From: a virus
Lineage: Duplodnaviria; Heunggongvirae; Uroviricota; Caudoviricetes
Virus record (IMG/VR): IMGVR_UViG_2645727743_000001
Coordinates: 1-6,833 of that record
DNA: 6,833 nt
Strand: one strand, 5' to 3'
Under the pieces are notes generated by a model. The model was not told where the DNA came from. It saw nothing but the letters and a program-made list of their open reading frames with translations, and did no database searches. The position numbers were made by a program, and so were the translations under genes. Shown here one piece after another: positions 1-6,833 of this stretch (the stretch's first letter is position 1; every line of letters starts with the position of its first letter).

Positions 1-603
1 CAGAAGCAGAAAAAGCTTATTATGCTTCCATCGGAAACGATGATCTGGCAGCCTGAGTTCACAGATAAAACACTCTCCAGGAAACCCGGGGCGGTTCACG
101 GCGTAAAGATTTGTCATGTAATTATTTACGGTGACAGCCGATCTCCCCGGTTGCGTAACAATATAATTACTTTTGGGGATCTGGTATCCAGTAAGTAATT
201 CTTTACGTACCGCCAGCAATTTTTCTTTATTAATCGACGAGGCAAGATTTTTTTCACCGATTATGCTCAGAATATTTTTGATGACGGCACGGTACGTGTT
301 GAGTGACGTTTTTGCGACTTCCGTTTCTTTCAGTGCCAGAAATTTTTCAGCCAGTTCCTTTATGGTTAAATCTTGTCGGGCCTCACCAAATTTTTCCAGA
401 TTGTGTGAGGAGGGAAACTGTTTTGCATAGTCGAAAACACCAGTTTTTATTGCGTAACAAACAGAGGCGCGCAGCTCACCTGCAATGCGCCTGTTTTTTG
501 CCGTGTCAGGAACCCCAAGATTTTCCCTGATTCTTACACCTTTATAAACAAACCAGATACGTAATTTCCCTCCATGGTTTTCCACGCCTGTCGGATATTT
601 CAT
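1..603 (-). CDS. int: Tyrosine integrase, N-terminal portion only (start at 603, continues past the left edge of the window)
   Basis: Minus-strand frame is open from ATG (revcomp of 601-603) to position 1; it is absent from the ORF track because it has no stop in the window. Hand translation begins MKYPTGVENHGGKLRIWFVYKGVRIRENLGVPDTAKNRRIAGELRASVCYAIKTGVFDYAKQF..., which resembles the arm-binding N-terminus of lambdoid integrases (Rac IntR from memory starts MSKLPTGVEIRGRYIRIWF). It lies 35 nt downstream of xis on the same strand. Possible weak SD GAGAGAAG upstream. Residues encoded by about 1-105 look less integrase-like to me. Confidence 0.6.
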   Translation of the reverse strand, partial: MKYPTGVENHGGKLRIWFVYKGVRIRENLGVPDTAKNRRIAGELRASVCYAIKTGVFDYAKQFPSSHNLEKFGEARQDLTIKELAEKFLALKETEVAKTSLNTYRAVIKNILSIIGEKNLASSINKEKLLAVRKELLTGYQIPKSNYIVTQPGRSAVTVNNYMTNLYAVNRPGFPGECFICELRLPDHRFRWKHNKLFLLL

Positions 604-637
604 TTCAGCTTCTCTCGTTGGTTAGTGTTACTTTTGC

Positions 638-889
638 TCAGGTAAGATGACGTCTTGGTCTTGCAGGTGCCTGGCGCTCAATCCAGCGGTCAATTTCTTC
701 CAGGTTGTAAAAGCATGGGCTGTTATCCCATGGCATACAGTCATGGGCGACATGCCTATACTCCCTTCCTTCCATAAACGATTTTTCCCTGGCTTTTTTT
801 AGCGTTCCCTTTTTTATTCCTTTCAGTGCAATTAGCTGTTCTTCGGATACCCATTTACCGGGAGAGATAATCATGATTACTTCGCTCAT
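638..889 (-). CDS. xis: Excisionase (lambda Xis-like)
   Basis: 83-aa ORF MSEVIMIISPGKWVSEEQLIALKGIKKGTLKKAREKSFMEGREYRHVAHD... has the W...R...GREY pattern of lambda/HK022 Xis (lambda DGREYLFHESA, from memory) and sits immediately upstream of int on the same strand. The start is uncertain: ATG at 889 or the in-frame ATG at 874 (MIISPGKW...); both have weak SD. Confidence 0.6.
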   Translation of the reverse strand: MSEVIMIISPGKWVSEEQLIALKGIKKGTLKKAREKSFMEGREYRHVAHDCMPWDNSPCFYNLEEIDRWIERQAPARPRRHLT

Positions 890-958
890 CGCTTTTATCT
901 CTTACTTCAGATGAGCGCCGGTTGCAGAATACCAGTCACAACCGGCGGTGGTTGAACA

Positions 959-3439
959 TTAAAAATCAGCCTGACTCGGGATCAGTTTTTGTATCGTAGC
1001 TGTAACGTATTTTGCCTGGTGACGGGCGTCATCCAGTGCATTGTGGCGCACGCCTTCGAATGGAATAACGGTTCTGGCATCAAAGTCGATTGTTTTTCCC
1101 AGCTCAACGATTGTGCGTACATCGCGATCGTTGTGGTAGCGCCACGGGCAGGGGATGTCCAGACGTTCGTATGAGGTGCGCAAAATTGCGTTATCGAAAG
1201 TCGCACCATTACCCCATACCTGAACGAATTTTTCATCTGAGTATTCGTTGATGAACTCCCGAAACTGCGAAAGGGCATCCTTCAGTTTTACCTGGTCTGT
1301 TAAAATGGCAGCTCTGGCTTCACTGGACTGCTTCAGCCACCATTCGATGGTTCCACCGTCAGGAACAGCCCCTGTATTCATTGCGTCAGTCAGACTGATA
1401 ACGATATAAAATACTGGCCCGATTTCCCCTGTTTGTGGGTCGAAGAAAACCGCACCAATAACCACGATGGGCGCATTGGTGTTGGTTCCCATTGTTTCAA
1501 GGTCGATCATCAAGTGGTACCACACTCTGCTGGTGGATGTGATAACGTGATGACCGTTCACCGCAATTAAGGGATCTGCCGTCTCGCCAGTTTCATTATC
1601 GCTGGCGTGGTCCTGAGCGCTGCCAGCATTCTCCTTGTGTGGATGTTCAGCGCCTTCCATTTCCTCCGGATCATTTTCCTGAACTTCAACCCGATTCTCT
1701 TCATTGAATGTTTCCTGGTATGTTGCGTCGCCCATCACCGCGCCACAATCAGGGCAGTTGCCGCCGCCGGTCTGACCGCAGGCGGTGCAGATCTTTTCCG
1801 GTTCCTGTTGCACTACTGGTTCAGGTTGTTTCGTTTCTGGCTCATTTTGTAACGCATTTGGGCTGTTTTGTTCCGCTTTCTGGCCGTTCTGTTCCGTTTC
1901 TTGCTGGTTCTGGTTCACAGAATCGCGGGTTTCCATCCCCTTCACCCATTTCGGATCATTCGGATCGCTAATTCCTGCAACAAATTCACCACGTGATACT
2001 GCAAGCAGTTCATCGGCGTCAGGCTGGCTGATATTGGCTGCCTGCATAATGTTGTTTACTTCGTCAGCGGTAACTTTTACCGGCCCTGGTTGTGCGGTCG
2101 TGTCAGATGCACCAGTATTTTGTTGTGAACCTGAGTATGTACTGTTTTTGCGGACGAAATATTCTTCTTTCGTGATTTCAGTAGCCCCGGCAGCCAGTGC
2201 CTTATCCAGACCAGAAAGTTTGTTTGCGCGACCGTATTTTTCGCCATCCTTGTCGGTGAAGAGGAAGTAGAACGGCCCCTCACGCTCTACAGATGGTTCG
2301 ACTTCCACTTTGCATTCGGTTTTTTCGTTGTCCGGAATTGCCGTTTCCACTGCATCAGTTTCTGGTACTGGCGACGAGAGAGTATCAGTTGCGCTCTGAT
2401 TTGTTCCTTCATCTTCAAACACGCCCTTTGTAGTCAGGTATTCAGTAATGTATTTGTTCAGTGCCACAGGGTCTTTGTGAATGTCGATCGGACGTTCACG
2501 GACAAGGCCAAAAATAGTCTGGCGGTCGTAGCGAAGGGCATCAGGCTGTTTGCGCATTGATGCTGAGATACGCTTCCAGTCTTCGCGGTCGTTGTTGATA
2601 ACTTCATTTTTTGCCCAGCGATGGATGCTGCCGTCAATGTTTCCGGCATCAACATCACCAGGCCACAGAGCGTAGGCCAGTTCATCATCCAGTGTTTTCC
2701 ATGTCTGCTTATATTCGCGACGAATGACAGCAATGACAGGGGAGATATTTTCTGCTGAGTTTTCAGTGTGCTGTCGGTTGACTCTGGCGCGGGCGAGATC
2801 AACAGCAGACGTGTATTTTCCGGTTTCCTTGCGTTCACCTTCGCGACGTTTTTTCCAGATGCGCATCTCTGCCTGAATTTCGGGCCATTTAGCACCAGGC
2901 TTACATTTATGCTTAACCCACCCGATGGCATGCAACTTAAGCTCCGGATACATGGCGTTAACTTCTGGCATTTTCATCAACGCTTCAACGATATGGCCGT
3001 CGAATGTTGCCATGTCTTCCTGCAACAATTCCTGTGCACTAATCACCATATCAACGGTGATGTTTTCACATGTGTCGAACTTAACCATGACAGCGTTCTG
3101 TACTTCAGGGGCCAGCTTGTCAAAAGTGACGTTCATCGGATCGGATTCAGTCTCAACCGGGACAAAGGAAGCAGACTCCTCATCCCAGCGGTTTTCCTGC
3201 ATATATTCAGCATCCCAGGAATCGAGGGCAGGGCGGGGTATACCGGGTTTATCCTCGCAAACAAGAAATTTATAAGCGCAGTCCTGAGCAGCCGGATAAT
3301 GTTCCAGGAATTGCCAGTGAAATTTTGCGCGGGCGCGACGTTCATCACCGGCTTCAATGGCAGTGGCTACAGCGACGGCACCTTCTTCCTTTATTGCCTG
3401 TTCGTCCGGAATGGCGGCGCAAATAAAGACTTTACTCAT
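959..3439 (-). CDS. ydfE: YdfE-family prophage protein, full length, with C-terminal DEDDh 3'-5' exonuclease domain (often annotated exodeoxyribonuclease VIII in lambdoid prophages)
   Basis: 826-aa ORF with SD GAGGT 9 nt upstream of ATG at 3439. The N-terminus MSKVFICAAIPDE...AVAVATAIEAGDERRARAKFHWQFLEHYPAAQDCAYKF matches my recollection of K-12 YdfE. The C-terminus carries DEDDh motifs: MIDLETMG (Exo I), WGNGATFDNAIL (Exo II), HNALDDARHQAKY (Exo III). The central region has a CxxC-x7-CxxC zinc-ribbon-like motif (CTACGQTGGGNCPDCG), a Q/E/P-rich low-complexity linker and the RecE-like segment LLAVSRGEFVAGISDPNDPKWVKG. Confidence 0.85.
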   Translation of the reverse strand: MSKVFICAAIPDEQAIKEEGAVAVATAIEAGDERRARAKFHWQFLEHYPAAQDCAYKFLVCEDKPGIPRPALDSWDAEYMQENRWDEESASFVPVETESDPMNVTFDKLAPEVQNAVMVKFDTCENITVDMVISAQELLQEDMATFDGHIVEALMKMPEVNAMYPELKLHAIGWVKHKCKPGAKWPEIQAEMRIWKKRREGERKETGKYTSAVDLARARVNRQHTENSAENISPVIAVIRREYKQTWKTLDDELAYALWPGDVDAGNIDGSIHRWAKNEVINNDREDWKRISASMRKQPDALRYDRQTIFGLVRERPIDIHKDPVALNKYITEYLTTKGVFEDEGTNQSATDTLSSPVPETDAVETAIPDNEKTECKVEVEPSVEREGPFYFLFTDKDGEKYGRANKLSGLDKALAAGATEITKEEYFVRKNSTYSGSQQNTGASDTTAQPGPVKVTADEVNNIMQAANISQPDADELLAVSRGEFVAGISDPNDPKWVKGMETRDSVNQNQQETEQNGQKAEQNSPNALQNEPETKQPEPVVQQEPEKICTACGQTGGGNCPDCGAVMGDATYQETFNEENRVEVQENDPEEMEGAEHPHKENAGSAQDHASDNETGETADPLIAVNGHHVITSTSRVWYHLMIDLETMGTNTNAPIVVIGAVFFDPQTGEIGPVFYIVISLTDAMNTGAVPDGGTIEWWLKQSSEARAAILTDQVKLKDALSQFREFINEYSDEKFVQVWGNGATFDNAILRTSYERLDIPCPWRYHNDRDVRTIVELGKTIDFDARTVIPFEGVRHNALDDARHQAKYVTATIQKLIPSQADF

Positions 3440-3532
3440 GTTGTTTTAACCTCATTACAGATTTAAGGGTGAACAAATCCCTGCCATTGCTGGCATATAA
3501 AAATGAAACCGGATATTAATTACGGAACTGTT

Positions 3533-3724
3533 TTAAAGACCTGCCGGGATTTCGTTATTATCCATGTGAATAACTTTATCGACCGGATAGCAGTTACCGG
3601 GAATTTTTTGTTCTGCTGCGGCAGCCATGCATTCTTTCATTGAACCGTAAATGTCAATAACCATGTCAACAGGCTCGCCAGTATTAAGAAAAACAGTCAG
3701 AGTGAGGGCAATAGTAGTATTCAT
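3533..3724 (-). CDS. ydfD: YdfD-like small lysis protein (63 aa, N-terminal hydrophobic segment)
   Basis: The ORF track gives 3533..3778, but the supported start is the internal ATG at 3722-3724, preceded by SD AAGGA (8-nt spacer) and overlapping the dicB stop in an ATGA arrangement. Product MNTTIALTLTVFLNTGEPVDMVIDIYGSMKECMAAAAEQKIPGNCYPVDKVIHMDNNEIPAGL is 63 aa, the length and position of Qin YdfD. Confidence 0.75.
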   Translation of the reverse strand: MNTTIALTLTVFLNTGEPVDMVIDIYGSMKECMAAAAEQKIPGNCYPVDKVIHMDNNEIPAGL

Positions 3725-3909
3725 TGCCAGTATCCTTTTTGCATCGGGCGTAAACGTGCCAGCATTGAAAGAATGCATATTTTATTTAATAGCTCCCGTT
3801 CGTGTTTTCTCTTATTAATGGCATCTTCAGTAAATACAGGGTTACTGATTCTGACACCAATTTCAAAACAACCTTCAGACGTATTGACGTTTGGTAATAA
3901 CGTTTCCAT
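3721..3909 (-). CDS. dicB: Cell division inhibitor DicB (MinC-activating, 62 aa)
   Basis: The ORF track gives 3721..4005, but the internal ATG at 3907-3909 has SD GAGGA 7 nt upstream. Product METLLPNVNTSEGCFEIGVRISNPVFTEDAINKRKHERELLNKICILSMLARLRPMQKGYWQ is 62 aa and matches my memory of DicB. It lies about 185 bp downstream of the DicF-like terminator, as in the K-12 dicB operon. Confidence 0.8.
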   Translation of the reverse strand: METLLPNVNTSEGCFEIGVRISNPVFTEDAINKRKHERELLNKICILSMLARLRPMQKGYWQ

Positions 3910-4092
3910 TATCGCGTCCTCAACAATGAATTTTGTGATGCGGTGCCTGGTGCCTCCAGGTGACGTTAACCAGTTAATAATTAACGCCGGATACAGAGAA
4001 CCCACCCATAAGAACCAATACGGAAGTCAACTGGCCTTTTTAACTGTTCCGCGTGCGCTGAGCCGCATTCACCGCATCACAAAATGCACTTT

Positions 4093-4150
4093 AAAAGGTG
4101 CGGGTATCATGGGAAAAACAAAACGGATACCCGCCAAAAGGTAATCAACA
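4093..4150 (-). ncRNA. dicF: DicF-like sRNA, divergent variant (boundaries approximate; 3' end set by hairpin plus U4)
   Basis: Minus-strand sequence TGTTGATTACCTTTTGGCGGGTATCCGTTTTGTTTTTCCCATGATACCCGCACCTTTT. It contains a 9-bp perfect stem (GCGGGTATC at 4134..4126 pairing with GATACCCGC at 4108..4100) followed by ACC and TTTT (4096..4093). It shares TTTGGCGG..TATC..GTTTT with the K-12 DicF sequence as I recall it, and sits in the expected position between ydfC and dicB. The 5' end is not determinable from sequence. Confidence 0.4.
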
Positions 4151-4480
4151 TGGGTTGTTGCAGCGGGGTTGTCACTCAGGCGTATGGTCAACCTGACAAC
4201 CCGGTGGACATTTGCGAGGAACGGAGAACCCCCGCCATACTTACCGCCGCGCCATTTCGCGGAGTGCCACAACCGGAAGCGCACGGTCGACGAAAATTTA
4301 ACGACAGGCTATCTATGAACCAACCACCTCGCCGTGCGCTTTCGCGTTATGCCCTGACTTTTCAGGGATATATTCTTTCTGTAAACTGTCAGTGCCGGAT
4401 ACTCACCCGTGTCCGGCGCACGCACTCCACCTCACCCGTGGAGAACTCCTTAATTACCAACCCTCAGGAGGGTGAAATTT

Positions 4481-4672
4481 ATGACACAAGAAGAAAAAGT
4501 AATGTTTCTTATGCGCCTGGCTGTGGAAACCTTTAACGCCCATTGCCAGGTGCCCCTTTCACTATCTCACGTTATTTCTCTTGCTACCGAGCAAATGGGG
4601 GAAATTGACGCCATTTACAATACATTTGAAGCATTCCTGGATAAGAAGCTTATGGCAGAGAAGCGTCAATAA
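4481..4672 (+). CDS. Hypothetical 63-aa protein, convergent with and overlapping the 3' end of the 201-aa cargo gene
   Basis: ATG at 4481 is preceded by a strong SD AGGAGGG (4466-4472) with an 8-nt spacer; the ORF track begins at the upstream GTG at 4472. Product MTQEEKVMFLMRLAVETFNAHCQVPLSLSHVISLATEQMGEIDAIYNTFEAFLDKKLMAEKRQ is non-repetitive and reads as helical. No competing long minus-strand ORF spans 4285-4649. No family recognised. Confidence 0.45.
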   Translation: MTQEEKVMFLMRLAVETFNAHCQVPLSLSHVISLATEQMGEIDAIYNTFEAFLDKKLMAEKRQ

Positions 4673-5255
4673 TCCTCATTACCCATCGTAAATTTACAGA
4701 AGTGGGCTTGATGTTGTGTTTTTCAAGCTCGCTCTTCATGATTTCCAGCAGCTTTGAGCTGATAATAAACAAATCAGGTGCATCGTTATTATTTTTATCC
4801 GCATCGTCTTTTTTCGTTTTTAACTCTTGCGGTGAATGTTCGAAAGCAACTTGCAGGGTATTATTTTTAACATCCACAGAGCTTAAAATATGTGCATATG
4901 GATGTGCTATTGTGCGCCCCTGTAAATTTGCATCGTTTTCTAAATCTTTTGATTTCAACAGAACATCAGCAAGACTCTGAATCATGCAGAGATAATCAAA
5001 AACAGTTGCCGTTTCTGTTCTGATTGCTGAAATAACATGACCATTCAGGCAAACAGAAATTACCCGTTCATCAATATCGTTTTCCTGTTTTTGATTATCA
5101 GAACCATATAGCCCTGAAAAAGCATTGCGCACATTACGAACCATATTATCGATGGTTTCTTTTTTGGTGTATGCCGGGTCAATTTTCACCAGACTATCAC
5201 CGAGTGTCGTTGCAGCAATTATCTGGATTTCTTTTGGTAAATCTTTAAATTCCAT
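4650..5255 (-). CDS. Hypothetical 201-aa soluble protein, low-GC cargo gene inserted in the dicB operon
   Basis: Intact ORF with SD GAGG 6 nt upstream of ATG at 5255, starting 22 nt after the ydfC-like stop (operon-coupled). Sampled 60-bp lines give about 33-42% GC versus about 57% in the ydfE gene. No transmembrane segment or catalytic motif recognised; there is a D/K/N-rich linker (KKDDADKNNNDAPD). Confidence 0.75.
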   Translation of the reverse strand: MEFKDLPKEIQIIAATTLGDSLVKIDPAYTKKETIDNMVRNVRNAFSGLYGSDNQKQENDIDERVISVCLNGHVISAIRTETATVFDYLCMIQSLADVLLKSKDLENDANLQGRTIAHPYAHILSSVDVKNNTLQVAFEHSPQELKTKKDDADKNNNDAPDLFIISSKLLEIMKSELEKHNIKPTSVNLRWVMRIIDASLP

Positions 5256-5277
5256 TATTAGCCTCGTTGGTTAACCA

Positions 5278-5496
5278 TTAACGTGGGTATGTAATCATTC
5301 TGGCAATGCTTAATGCCGCTGCTTTTTCCAGATTGGTGATATCCTGCTCCAGAGCGGACAGATTTTCAGCCTGCTTAGCCCTGGCTTCATTGGCCCATTT
5401 CAGGTCCTGCGCAGCCTTAATTTTCTGGTGCATCCACTCATAAAGTTCATCATCGGTATAGTCTGGCGCGATGATGACGGGTTCTCGTTTCTGCAT
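5278..5496 (-). CDS. ydfC: YdfC-like small prophage protein (72 aa)
   Basis: ORF MQKREPVIIAPDYTDDELYEWMHQKIKAAQDLKWANEARAKQAENLSALEQDITNLEKAAALSIARMITYPR with SD GAGGA 6 nt upstream of ATG at 5496. Same length and operon position as Qin YdfC. Confidence 0.7.
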   Translation of the reverse strand: MQKREPVIIAPDYTDDELYEWMHQKIKAAQDLKWANEARAKQAENLSALEQDITNLEKAAALSIARMITYPR

Positions 5497-5525
5497 ACTG
5501 ATTCCTCGCGGTGCTGCTTCGCTTA

Positions 5526-5654
5526 TCAGCCGTTAGATTTTGCCGGGCTGGAAAGCGCCTGTTTAAATTCGCTGAAGCTGAGGGCTTCTTCGCCTTCGGC
5601 AAGGCCTTCGAAGTATTCTTCGTAAGCCTTTTCCATGATTGTGTCGAAATCCAT
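5526..5654 (-). CDS. ydfB: YdfB-like small protein (42 aa), not in the ORF track
   Basis: Hand translation of the minus strand gives MDFDTIMEKAYEEYFEGLAEGEEALSFSEFKQALSSPAKSNG. ATG at 5652-5654 lies 1 nt after the ydfA-like TGA stop (TGAtATG); stop TGA at 5526-5528. Length and position match Qin YdfB. An alternative start is the internal ATG at 5634-5636. Confidence 0.6.
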   Translation of the reverse strand: MDFDTIMEKAYEEYFEGLAEGEEALSFSEFKQALSSPAKSNG

Positions 5655-5655
5655 A

Positions 5656-5811
5656 TCACCCACCTGAATCTCTTTCCAGCCAGCGACGCGCTCCAGATTC
5701 GGTTTTAAACGTTTTGCTTTTGGTATACGTCATTGCGGTGAACGTGCCGTCCTGGTTTGGAAACACGCCGTACACCAGAGATTCGTTGTTGCCAAGATCG
5801 ATAGTATCCAT
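5656..5811 (-). CDS. ydfA: YdfA-like small protein (51 aa, DUF1391-type)
   Basis: The ORF track gives 5656..5865; the internal ATG at 5809-5811 has GAGG 5 nt upstream. Product MDTIDLGNNESLVYGVFPNQDGTFTAMTYTKSKTFKTESGARRWLERDSGG is 51 aa and matches my recollection of YdfA. Confidence 0.7.
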   Translation of the reverse strand: MDTIDLGNNESLVYGVFPNQDGTFTAMTYTKSKTFKTESGARRWLERDSGG

Positions 5812-5889
5812 GCTGACCTCATTTCCCCTTAACGCCGGGGTAGCGGAACTGTTTGCTGAGAACACCGTGCGGTGTCTTGATGGAAAGTA

Positions 5890-5907
5890 ATTTAGAATAA
5901 CCTAACA
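5890..5907. promoter_or_regulatory. Degenerate operator-like palindrome (minus-strand reading TGTTAGG-TTAT-TCTAAAT) in the dicB-operon promoter region
   Basis: Matches the TGTTAGA-N4-TCTAACA pattern at 11 of 14 arm positions. Centre lies 36 bp from the perfect site at 5926-5943, between the dicA stop and the ydfA start. Confidence 0.4.
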
Positions 5908-5925
5908 TGAGAGGCAAGTGTTTTT

Positions 5926-5943
5926 TGTTAGATTGATCTAACA
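5926..5943. promoter_or_regulatory. Operator palindrome TGTTAGA-TTGA-TCTAACA (candidate DicA site controlling the ydfABC-dicF-dicB operon)
   Basis: Perfect 7-bp inverted arms with a 4-bp spacer, read directly from the sequence. Located in the 168-bp gap between the dicA stop (5980) and the ydfA-like start (5811). Confidence 0.6.
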
Positions 5944-5979
5944 AAAAGGGTGGGCGCAACTAATCACTTGAAAAGAATG

Positions 5980-6387
5980 TTATTTTATTGATTTATTTTT
6001 ACGCGCTTTAAGCATTTCTTCGAAGAGTTTGTTGAAGTTTTCTACTCTTGCGCGCATTTCAGACAGCAAGGCTTCCTGCTCGGAAGATGGAAGAGCATCG
6101 AATAATTCGATCAATTCTTTGTGGTTGGGAGTTAGCTCTGTTTCCACATGAAGTTCTTGTGCAGGCACTGGTGCCTTGTCTTCGTCACCAAACATTAGCC
6201 ATGTAGGTGAGCACTTCAGAGCATCCGCTAAAGCAAACAATCGTTTTCCGACTGGCTGGGTTTCGTCTCTTTCCCATTGTGAAATTGTGACGTGAGCAAC
6301 TCCAGCGAGGCGCGCAGCTTCTCGTTGTGTTAAGCGTAATTCTTTTCGTCGCGCCAGAACTCGCTGGCCTAGGGTTCTTGTATCCAT
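5980..6387 (-). CDS. dicA: HTH XRE-family repressor DicA (135 aa), the CI-like immunity repressor
   Basis: ORF MDTRTLGQRVLARRKELRLTQREAARLAGVAHVTISQWERDETQPVGKRLFALADALKCSPTWLMFGDEDK...EMRARVENFNKLFEEMLKARKNKSIK. It has the same length as K-12 DicA and shares CSPTWxxFGDEDK and EMRARVxNFNKLFEE with it (from memory). Divergent from the dicC-like gene. Weak or absent SD. Confidence 0.85.
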   Translation of the reverse strand: MDTRTLGQRVLARRKELRLTQREAARLAGVAHVTISQWERDETQPVGKRLFALADALKCSPTWLMFGDEDKAPVPAQELHVETELTPNHKELIELFDALPSSEQEALLSEMRARVENFNKLFEEMLKARKNKSIK

Positions 6388-6405
6388 AGTTAGGTAATTC
6401 TAATT
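6388..6405. promoter_or_regulatory. Degenerate operator-like site AGTTAGG-TAAT-TCTAATT abutting the dicA start codon
   Basis: Matches the TGTTAGA-N4-TCTAACA pattern in arm spacing and most arm bases. Lies immediately upstream of the dicA ATG (6385-6387), so it is a candidate autoregulatory site. Confidence 0.35.
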
Positions 6406-6409
6406 TTTC

Positions 6410-6437
6410 TTGACTTAGGTATCCCGCGCACAATAAT
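6410..6437 (+). promoter_or_regulatory. Candidate sigma70 promoter for dicC (-35 TTGACT, 16-nt spacer, -10 AATAAT)
   Basis: TTGACT at 6410-6415 and AATAAT at 6432-6437, read directly. The -10 abuts or overlaps the perfect operator at 6437-6454. Confidence 0.5.
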
Positions 6438-6454
6438 GTTAGAAAAGTCTAACA
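6437..6454. promoter_or_regulatory. Operator palindrome TGTTAGA-AAAG-TCTAACA between the dicC promoter and the dicC SD
   Basis: Perfect 7-bp inverted arms with a 4-bp spacer, identical arms to the site at 5926-5943. Lies directly 5' of the dicC SD AGAGGGGG (6455-6462). Confidence 0.6.
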
Positions 6455-6467
6455 AGAGGGGGCTTTG

Positions 6468-6695
6468 ATGCTTAAAGTTGACGCAATTACTTTTTTTGGC
6501 AGCAAAACAAAGCTTGCCAATGCCGCAGGAGTGAGACTGGCAAGTGTTGCTGCTTGGGGGATACTGGTTCCTGAAGGTCGCGCGATGCGTCTACAGGAGG
6601 CATCTGGCGGGGAGCTTCAGTATGATCCCAAAGTTTATGACGAATATCGTAAGACGAAGCGGGCGGGGCGGTTGAACAATGAAAATCACTCCTGA
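6468..6695 (+). CDS. dicC: DicC / YdaS-like Cro-type regulator (75 aa from ATG at 6468)
   Basis: [78 protein letters not shown]. The ORF track starts at TTG 6465; I prefer the ATG at 6468, 5 nt after SD AGAGGGGG. Divergent from dicA; fits the YdaS/DicC family pattern GSxxKLAxAxGVxxxSVxxW. Confidence 0.8.
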
Positions 6696-6786
6696 ACAGG
6701 CTCGTGAGGCTCTGGATGCCTGGATATGTCGACCAGTAGACTGGCCCCCTGAATCTCCAGACAACCAGTATCACTTAAATAAGTGA
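6679..6786 (+). CDS. Short 35-aa ORF overlapping the dicC 3' end (possible remnant or small gene)
   Basis: ATG at 6679 to TGA at 6784-6786 gives [35 protein letters not shown]. It overlaps the dicC stop by 17 nt. No SD checked; could be a truncated ydfX/ydaT-like start. Confidence 0.2.
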
Positions 6787-6833
6787 TAGTCTTAATACTA
6801 GTTTTTAGACTAGTCATTGGAGAACAGATGATT

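Follow-up and report, generated by a model that had tools for sequence, protein, structure and literature searches.

What does an intact ydfE-type gene encode, and does it deserve the name exodeoxyribonuclease VIII that several phage records give it? The question is raised by positions 1 to 6,833 of the IMG/VR record IMGVR_UViG_2645727743_000001 (Caudoviricetes), a stretch of 6,833 nucleotides hereafter called the window. Here a single open reading frame (ORF) of 826 codons, with an ATG start and a stop codon, occupies 959..3439 on the minus strand and constitutes an intact ydfE-type gene. An earlier interpretation of the bare nucleotides (the sequence-only reading) had proposed that this frame is open for its whole length, and that the K-12 gene is interrupted by an insertion sequence (IS). 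Both points are borne out, the K-12 copy (b1577) being annotated as a 921-nt pseudogene overlapped by IS2E. The proposed N-terminal YdfE region is likewise present: over amino acids (aa) 1-256, 242/256 residues (95%) are identical to K-12 YdfE, and the two genes hold the same operon position after dicB-ydfD. In K-12, however, IS2E cuts the gene after residue 256, IS-derived sequence follows, and everything from the RecE-like centre to the nuclease is missing.

At the nucleotide level the ORF is 99.4% identical to a RefSeq coding sequence named '3'-5' exonuclease', and phrog_2082 matched along the full length of the 826-aa protein. Other RefSeq/PGAP names are 'exonuclease' and '3'-5' exoribonuclease domain-containing protein', while 'exodeoxyribonuclease VIII' lingers mainly in phage entries of GenBank. 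RefSeq names, Pfam and PHROGs already represent the ORF, its DEDDh domain and its YdfE N-terminus, which in this sense are known; a literature search found no functional paper on YdfE. What is added here is the exact boundary of the RecE similarity, a map of domains and linkers with selection data, and a pattern of head swapping that includes apparent Rad52-fold fusions mislabelled as exonucleases.

A BLASTP comparison with K-12 RecE (NP_415866, 866 aa) aligned aa 262-625 of the window protein with RecE 278-591 (E=2e-63), and found no RecE similarity for the first 260 or the last 200 residues. The last ~155 residues of the match (aa ~470-625) are roughly 85% identical to RecE, judged by eye. 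The shared span holds the GISDPNDPKWVKG motif, the PEPVVQQEPE linker, a zinc ribbon and an acidic tail; similarity stops at ...ETGE(T/V)ADP(L/V)I, just before the PD-(D/E)XK catalytic domain of RecE. The NCBI equivalog model for exonuclease VIII, NF007259, was matched at model positions 269-603 of 877 only. By these comparisons, the window protein is related to RecE but carries another N-terminus and a swapped nuclease head.

A true RecE orthologue, that is a 5'-3' double-stranded DNA exonuclease feeding RecT, would fit the name used in several phage records, the homology of aa 262-625 to the RecE centre (zinc ribbon included) and the partial match to NF007259. However, that match scores 277 bits against a cut-off of 1269, nothing in the protein resembles RecE 592-866, and the C-terminus belongs to a different family, PF16473. 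Moreover, there is no adjacent recT, whereas a relative carrying the RecE-type nuclease precedes an overlapping RecT gene. We give this explanation almost no credence; at the level of sequence it is already refuted. The sequence-only reading had called exodeoxyribonuclease VIII a probable misnomer, and was right that the nuclease is not of the RecE type. The name is not arbitrary, though: because the RecE homology is limited to the central region, it has a real yet partial basis.

In place of the RecE nuclease, aa 642-814 match PF16473 (Rv2179c-like 3'-5' exoribonuclease domain) with E=7.6e-68 and 228 bits against a cut-off of 27, covering profile positions 2-175 of 177. Matches to RNase_T and oligoribonuclease are weak. 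The domain search thus places the C-terminus firmly inside the DEDD superfamily, and the DEDDh domain with all three Exo motifs, as predicted from the sequence, is present. Catalytic residues were aligned across 15 heads: the window domain, T4 DexA, nine stand-alone enterobacterial homologues and four long relatives. D646, E648, D749, H799 and D804 are conserved (Table 1), with D646 and E648 aligning with D7 and E9 of DexA. The only solved structures reachable by sequence were those of T4 DexA (PDB 8KEL and 8KEN; E=3e-8 with the single sequence and 2.5e-16 with the family profile). No Rv2179c chain was reported at E<=0.01 in the PDB profile search, although whether that copy of the PDB holds one was not checked. 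In the T4 record, DexA is given as a 3'-5' DNA exonuclease with a role in replication and host DNA degradation.

The head also occurs in the databases as a short protein. A 183-aa RefSeq protein (P0272) with 277 member sequences, some of them on long contigs, is 97% identical to the head and begins at the internal M644 (MIDLETMG), which suggests truncated copies or separately annotated heads. An internal start at M644 (window 959-1510) that would yield a free nuclease was considered and rejected, as no Shine-Dalgarno motif precedes that ATG in the window.

The region N-terminal of the nuclease (aa 1-640) was modelled with AlphaFold2 from 56 diverse homologues, giving a mean predicted local distance difference test (pLDDT) score of 74. 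Confidence is high for four folded units: one alpha/beta (aa 1-100), two helical (105-215 and 245-345) and one made of two beta-hairpins plus helices (388-435). It is moderate for a helical stretch spanning aa 458-500 and low to moderate for the zinc ribbon, whilst aa 217-236, 347-382, 438-455, 503-545 and 577-640 are predicted to be disordered. Newer Pfam releases divide the N-terminus into two families, YdfE_N (PF27430) and YdfE_C (PF27432), both precomputed on homologues 74-97% identical. Domain 2 (aa 101-216) probably corresponds to YdfE_C, judging from which hits lack PF27430. The third domain (aa 245-346) is shared not only with RecE but also with 'RecE' proteins of Gifsy, HK225 and Klebsiella phage origin. 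The fourth (aa 388-437) is absent from K-12 RecE, where the alignment has a gap. The predicted CxxC-x7-CxxC motif (CTACGQTGGGNCPDC) was located; the zinc ribbon is shared with K-12 RecE and missing in several relatives. The Q/E/P-rich linker of the sequence-only reading also exists, but it directly precedes the zinc ribbon, where the stated order had it following. Beyond the ribbon, the acidic linker ends in ...ETGETADPLI, the last residues similar to RecE. The protein is a set of beads on a string: disordered linkers, acidic or rich in Q/E/P, connect four small folded domains and a zinc ribbon, after which comes a C-terminal DEDDh nuclease. Overall, the sequence-only reading of 959-3439 is supported.

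The domain map agrees with the ratio of non-synonymous to synonymous substitution rates (dN/dS), computed at codon level against the Tritos and mEp460_ev081 copies of the gene. Against Tritos, dN/dS lies between 0.05 and 0.16 in the four scaffold domains and the DEDDh domain (Table 1). It reaches 0.64-1.1 in three of the linkers predicted to be disordered (aa 217-244, 347-387 and 577-640) and about 0.3-0.4 in the Q/E/P linker. A single exception among the three was found in the comparison with mEp460, where aa 347-387 had zero non-synonymous changes. Purifying selection acts on the folded domains, while the linkers evolve nearly neutrally. In the same codon-level comparison, synonymous divergence (dS), only 0.08 in domain 2, jumps to 1.1 in the DEDDh domain, which points to recombination inside the gene.

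These values bear on the idea that the gene is a decaying prophage remnant without current function. Decay is certainly seen elsewhere: the K-12 copy is IS-disrupted, the copies in PPompW prophages carry a 4-bp deletion, and the databases hold many partial entries, though there mostly from contig breaks. Here, by contrast, the 826-codon frame is open, dN/dS is low in every folded domain and approaches 1 only in linkers, and viable temperate phages carry the gene intact (Tritos and mEp460_ev081; full-length matches also occur in Evi and HannyBb). We therefore regard a functionless remnant as very improbable. Among 5426 complete E. coli genomes, 3526 carry at least 80% of the gene, at a median of two places per genome. 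A separate observation concerns the orthologue of the Stx2a phage Stx2_14040 and PPompW prophages (L010:3001-5468), which is annotated as a pseudogene with the 4-bp deletion frameshift throughout the PPompW series.

When 1.84 billion cluster representatives were searched exhaustively with aa 1-640 (HMMER), only 247 proteins reached E <= 0.001, so the scaffold family is small. Long relatives were sorted with phmmer probes, one per module, and two N-termini (YdfE-type and RecE-type) were found in combination with four C-terminal heads. The window protein and P0121 join the YdfE-type N-terminus to a DEDDh head, whereas P0128, P0138, P0256 and P0122 join the RecE-type N-terminus to it. Similarly, the RecE-type nuclease follows the YdfE-type N-terminus in P0131, P0199 and P0235, and its own N-terminus in RecE itself. 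A phmmer search with RecE 596-866 found the RecE nuclease domain in P0131, P0142 and others in the database of relatives. The third head is attached to the YdfE-type N-terminus in P0133, P0139, P0182 and others; it corresponds to phrog_2489, annotated 'exonuclease'. A sequence search of the PDB with this head gave nothing, but fold comparison matched RAD52 and Mgm101, and these proteins appear from that comparison to be fusions to a Rad52-fold annealase. The fourth, a short conserved tail in place of a nuclease (LTIAAxxGLCANPA; phrog_26058), occurs with either N-terminus (P0125, P0134 and others; L008:4001-6109).

Gene context sorts with head type. At the one locus checked for the YdfE-type N-terminus with RecE-type nuclease (P0131, L007:768-4354), an overlapping RecT gene follows (PF03837, E=2e-36). 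The Rad52-like fusion gene is followed by a Sipho_Gp157 gene. None of five DEDDh loci (the window, E. coli AST205, phages Tritos and mEp460_ev081, and a Rac-like prophage with RecE-type N-terminus and DEDDh head) has recT after the gene; in 5/5, excisionase and integrase follow directly. The window is the immunity and early-left region of a Qin-like lambdoid prophage, with genes for dicC (P22_Cro), dicA (HTH_3), ydfA (DUF1391), ydfC, dicB, the DUF1482 protein, the exonuclease and the excisionase. The operon order is dicA / ydfABC ... dicB-ydfD-[exonuclease gene]-xis-int, and the exonuclease gene occupies the slot that recE-recT holds in Rac, upstream of xis-int in the early-left operon. A scan of 500-4200 for promoters and terminators gave counts at or below shuffle expectation and no signal separating the exonuclease gene from its neighbours.

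The explanation that we favour, and hold to be fairly probable, is that this is an intact early-left-operon gene of a Qin-like prophage, whose RecE-like scaffold delivers a DexA/Rv2179c-family DEDDh head to DNA ends or recombination intermediates, where it trims 3' tails. The operon would be expressed only upon derepression of DicA control. After prophage induction, the scaffold would bring the head where the RecE scaffold brings its nuclease, presumably to DNA ends or recombination intermediates; such delivery is suggested by the presence of this scaffold in RecE and by its fusion, in other relatives, to a 5'-3' nuclease or a Rad52-fold annealase. Once there, the head would most likely remove nucleotides from free 3' ends by a two-metal mechanism, the polarity being that predicted from the family. 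It would trim 3' tails instead of resecting 5' strands, and would do so without a dedicated annealase. As substrate DNA is favoured, T4 DexA being the nearest relative that has been characterised. DexA itself is thought to trim 3' tails in T4 intron homing (PMC12153337). Two considerations weigh against this explanation. The PF16473 family also contains an exoribonuclease; and a 3'-5' nuclease makes no substrates for an annealase, nor is an annealase adjacent, which speaks against a classical recombination role.

The first of these leads to an RNA-directed 3'-5' exoribonuclease like Rv2179c, which would act on host or phage transcripts, small RNAs or nucleotide immune signals in lytic growth, in a counter-defence or gene-expression role. 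The Pfam family is named for an exoribonuclease, RNase_T and oligoribonuclease are weakly matched, and some RefSeq names carry the same label. Set against these, the sole solved relative found by the family profile is a DNA exonuclease, DexA, and the scaffold is common to DNA-recombination proteins. We judge an RNA substrate to be possible but unlikely.

The kinship with DexA also raises a defence role. The protein could be a prophage-borne HREX-type nuclease, a DexA homologue like E. coli EcD that selectively destroys the 5-hydroxymethylcytosine (5hmC) DNA of incoming T-even phages, or, more broadly, a DEDDh defence enzyme with an auxiliary domain like ISG20/TONDO. An E. coli DexA homologue is reported to digest T4 DNA and protect cells (PMC12153337), prophage-encoded DEDDh exonucleases with auxiliary domains are reported to block RNA phages (PMC13344964), and defence genes are common cargo of prophages. 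The residues proposed to read 5hmC are W152 and D169 of DexA, and loss of the tetramer contact D90 is a feature of the defensive EcD type (PMC12153337). In the window protein, however, the W152 column is occupied by H769, the Trp not being conserved, and D90 is kept as D721, unlike in the EcD type. The D169 column holds T783, within a gapped loop of the alignment. Identity with the published EcD nuclease was considered and rejected, as the EcD primers encode other termini (MIDTET... to ...TIPETYD). PADLOC gave only a generic Cas-associated DEDDh model (E=3.5e-5), and the gene sits between dicB and xis in an early operon under repressor control, rather than in a moron slot that lysogens express. 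As for TONDO, its candidates came from BLAST hit lists limited to proteins <500 aa, all picked as ISG20 homologues (PMC13344964). An HREX-type role is possible but not favoured, and we consider defence in either form distinctly improbable.

Table 1. Coordinates of features in the window, in order of position. Residue numbers refer to the 826-aa protein and, unless given as a range or an approximate value, dN/dS is against phage Tritos.
Feature	Position	Strand	Remarks
Excisionase gene (DUF1233), downstream of exonuclease gene	638..889	-	
DEDDh 3'-5' exonuclease domain (predicted), aa 642-814	998..1516	-	PF16473, DexA/Rv2179c family; dN/dS 0.16
Exo III, H799-x4-D804	1028..1045	-	invariant; aligned to DexA H186, D191
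Exo II aspartate, D749	1193..1195	-	kept in 14/15; aligns with DexA D119
Exo I, D646-L-E648	1496..1504	-	D646 and E648 invariant, 15/15
Acidic disordered linker between ribbon and nuclease, aa 577-640	1520..1711	-	dN/dS ~1.0
CxxC-x7-CxxC zinc-ribbon knuckles, aa 551-565	1745..1789	-	
Q/E/P-rich low-complexity linker, aa 510-548	1796..1912	-	pLDDT ~35
Partly helical segment, aa 438-502	1934..2128	-	RecE-shared motif LAxSRGEFVxGISDPNDPKWVKG
Domain 4, aa 388-437, small beta-hairpin/helix	2129..2278	-	pLDDT 93-96; dN/dS 0.06
Disordered linker, aa 347-387	2279..2401	-	pLDDT <40; dN/dS 0.73
Domain 3, aa 245-346, helical	2402..2707	-	first RecE-shared segment (RecE ~278-350); dN/dS 0.10
Disordered linker, aa 217-244	2708..2791	-	pLDDT 40-50; dN/dS 0.64-0.73
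Domain 2, aa 101-216, helical	2792..3139	-	pLDDT >90; dN/dS 0.05
Domain 1, aa 1-100, alpha/beta, YdfE_N region	3140..3439	-	pLDDT 95-98; dN/dS 0.05; PF27430 on near-identical homologues
Shine-Dalgarno-like GAGG	3450..3453	-	10 nt before ATG, read from sequence
DUF1482 gene, ydfD position, upstream neighbour	3533..3778	-	
dicB	3721..3909	-	Pfam DicB, E=1e-36
66-aa convergent ORF in 795-bp insertion	4472-4672	+	phrog_2605, unknown function
201-aa ORF in 795-bp insertion	4650-5255	-	phrog_1363, unknown function; no Pfam/PADLOC match

Two further observations were made elsewhere in the window. Relative to K-12 Qin there is a ~795-bp low-GC insertion (4463-5257) between ydfC and the dicF region, holding the last two ORFs of Table 1; it is possibly a moron, that is extra gene cargo. 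At the dicF position (~4085-4150, minus strand) the flanks are conserved with K-12 and Tritos, whereas in place of the DicF core stands divergent sequence that has a 9-nt deletion. Rfam matched no RNA family in the window, and gave no DicF hit at this position, whether the gathering score or E<=1 was applied. Still present are a hairpin (GGCGGGTATC...GATACCCGC) and, after it, a T-run; the sequence could be a variant small RNA with a different seed or a dead copy.

A wider proposal, which we advance only tentatively, is that the YdfE-type and RecE-type N-termini with their shared centre form a generic tethering platform of lambdoid early operons, on which heads for DNA transactions (PD-(D/E)XK or DEDDh nuclease, Rad52-fold annealase, short helical tail) are exchanged by intragenic recombination. 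The function of the RecE N-terminal region has been described as unclear, and full-length RecE improves linear-linear recombination (PMC11610958). If the proposal is true, the platform would be the unexplained part of RecE that boosts this reaction, and the DEDDh version would represent an undescribed, annealase-independent 3'-end trimming in recombination, replication restart or evasion of end-sensing host immunity. Since the scaffold is the same region that makes full-length RecE better in linear-linear recombineering, its binding target could explain a widely used cloning tool. The annotation matters too: 'exodeoxyribonuclease VIII' implies 5'-3' resection with RecT, where the predicted polarity is opposite and there is no annealase partner. 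Head swapping likewise flags the 'exonuclease' annotations of phrog_2489 as apparent Rad52-like annealase fusions. Occurring in roughly two thirds of complete E. coli genomes, frequently as several copies, the protein is among the most widespread uncharacterised prophage proteins of that species.

How, then, does the protein compare with known systems? It differs from RecE of the Rac prophage at both ends. The RecE N-terminus is PF06630, unrelated over 260 aa to the YdfE-type N-terminus here, and the RecE head is a PD-(D/E)XK 5'-3' nuclease where the window protein has a DEDDh domain and no RecT partner. With T4 DexA, a phage-encoded 3'-5' DNA exonuclease, it shares the DEDDh family and aligned catalytic D, E, D, H and D residues; identity is only 28%, however, and DexA is a 227-aa stand-alone protein with extra loops. 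Mycobacterium tuberculosis Rv2179c, the founder of PF16473 and so in the same Pfam family as the window head, is a chromosomal, single-domain protein reported as an exoribonuclease. Stand-alone PF16473 proteins of enterobacterial prophages (180-193 aa; for example P0326, P0341, P0352) are 58-72% identical to the head and also start at MIDLETMG, but they are without the scaffold, and most have a Trp equivalent to DexA W152. P0128 (805 aa), the chimera of RecE-type N-terminus and DEDDh head, shares the zinc ribbon, the acidic linker, the head (73% identity) and the lack of recT with the window protein, but its N-terminus is RecE-type (PF06630) and its backbone is Rac-like, with kilR, ydaE and sieB.

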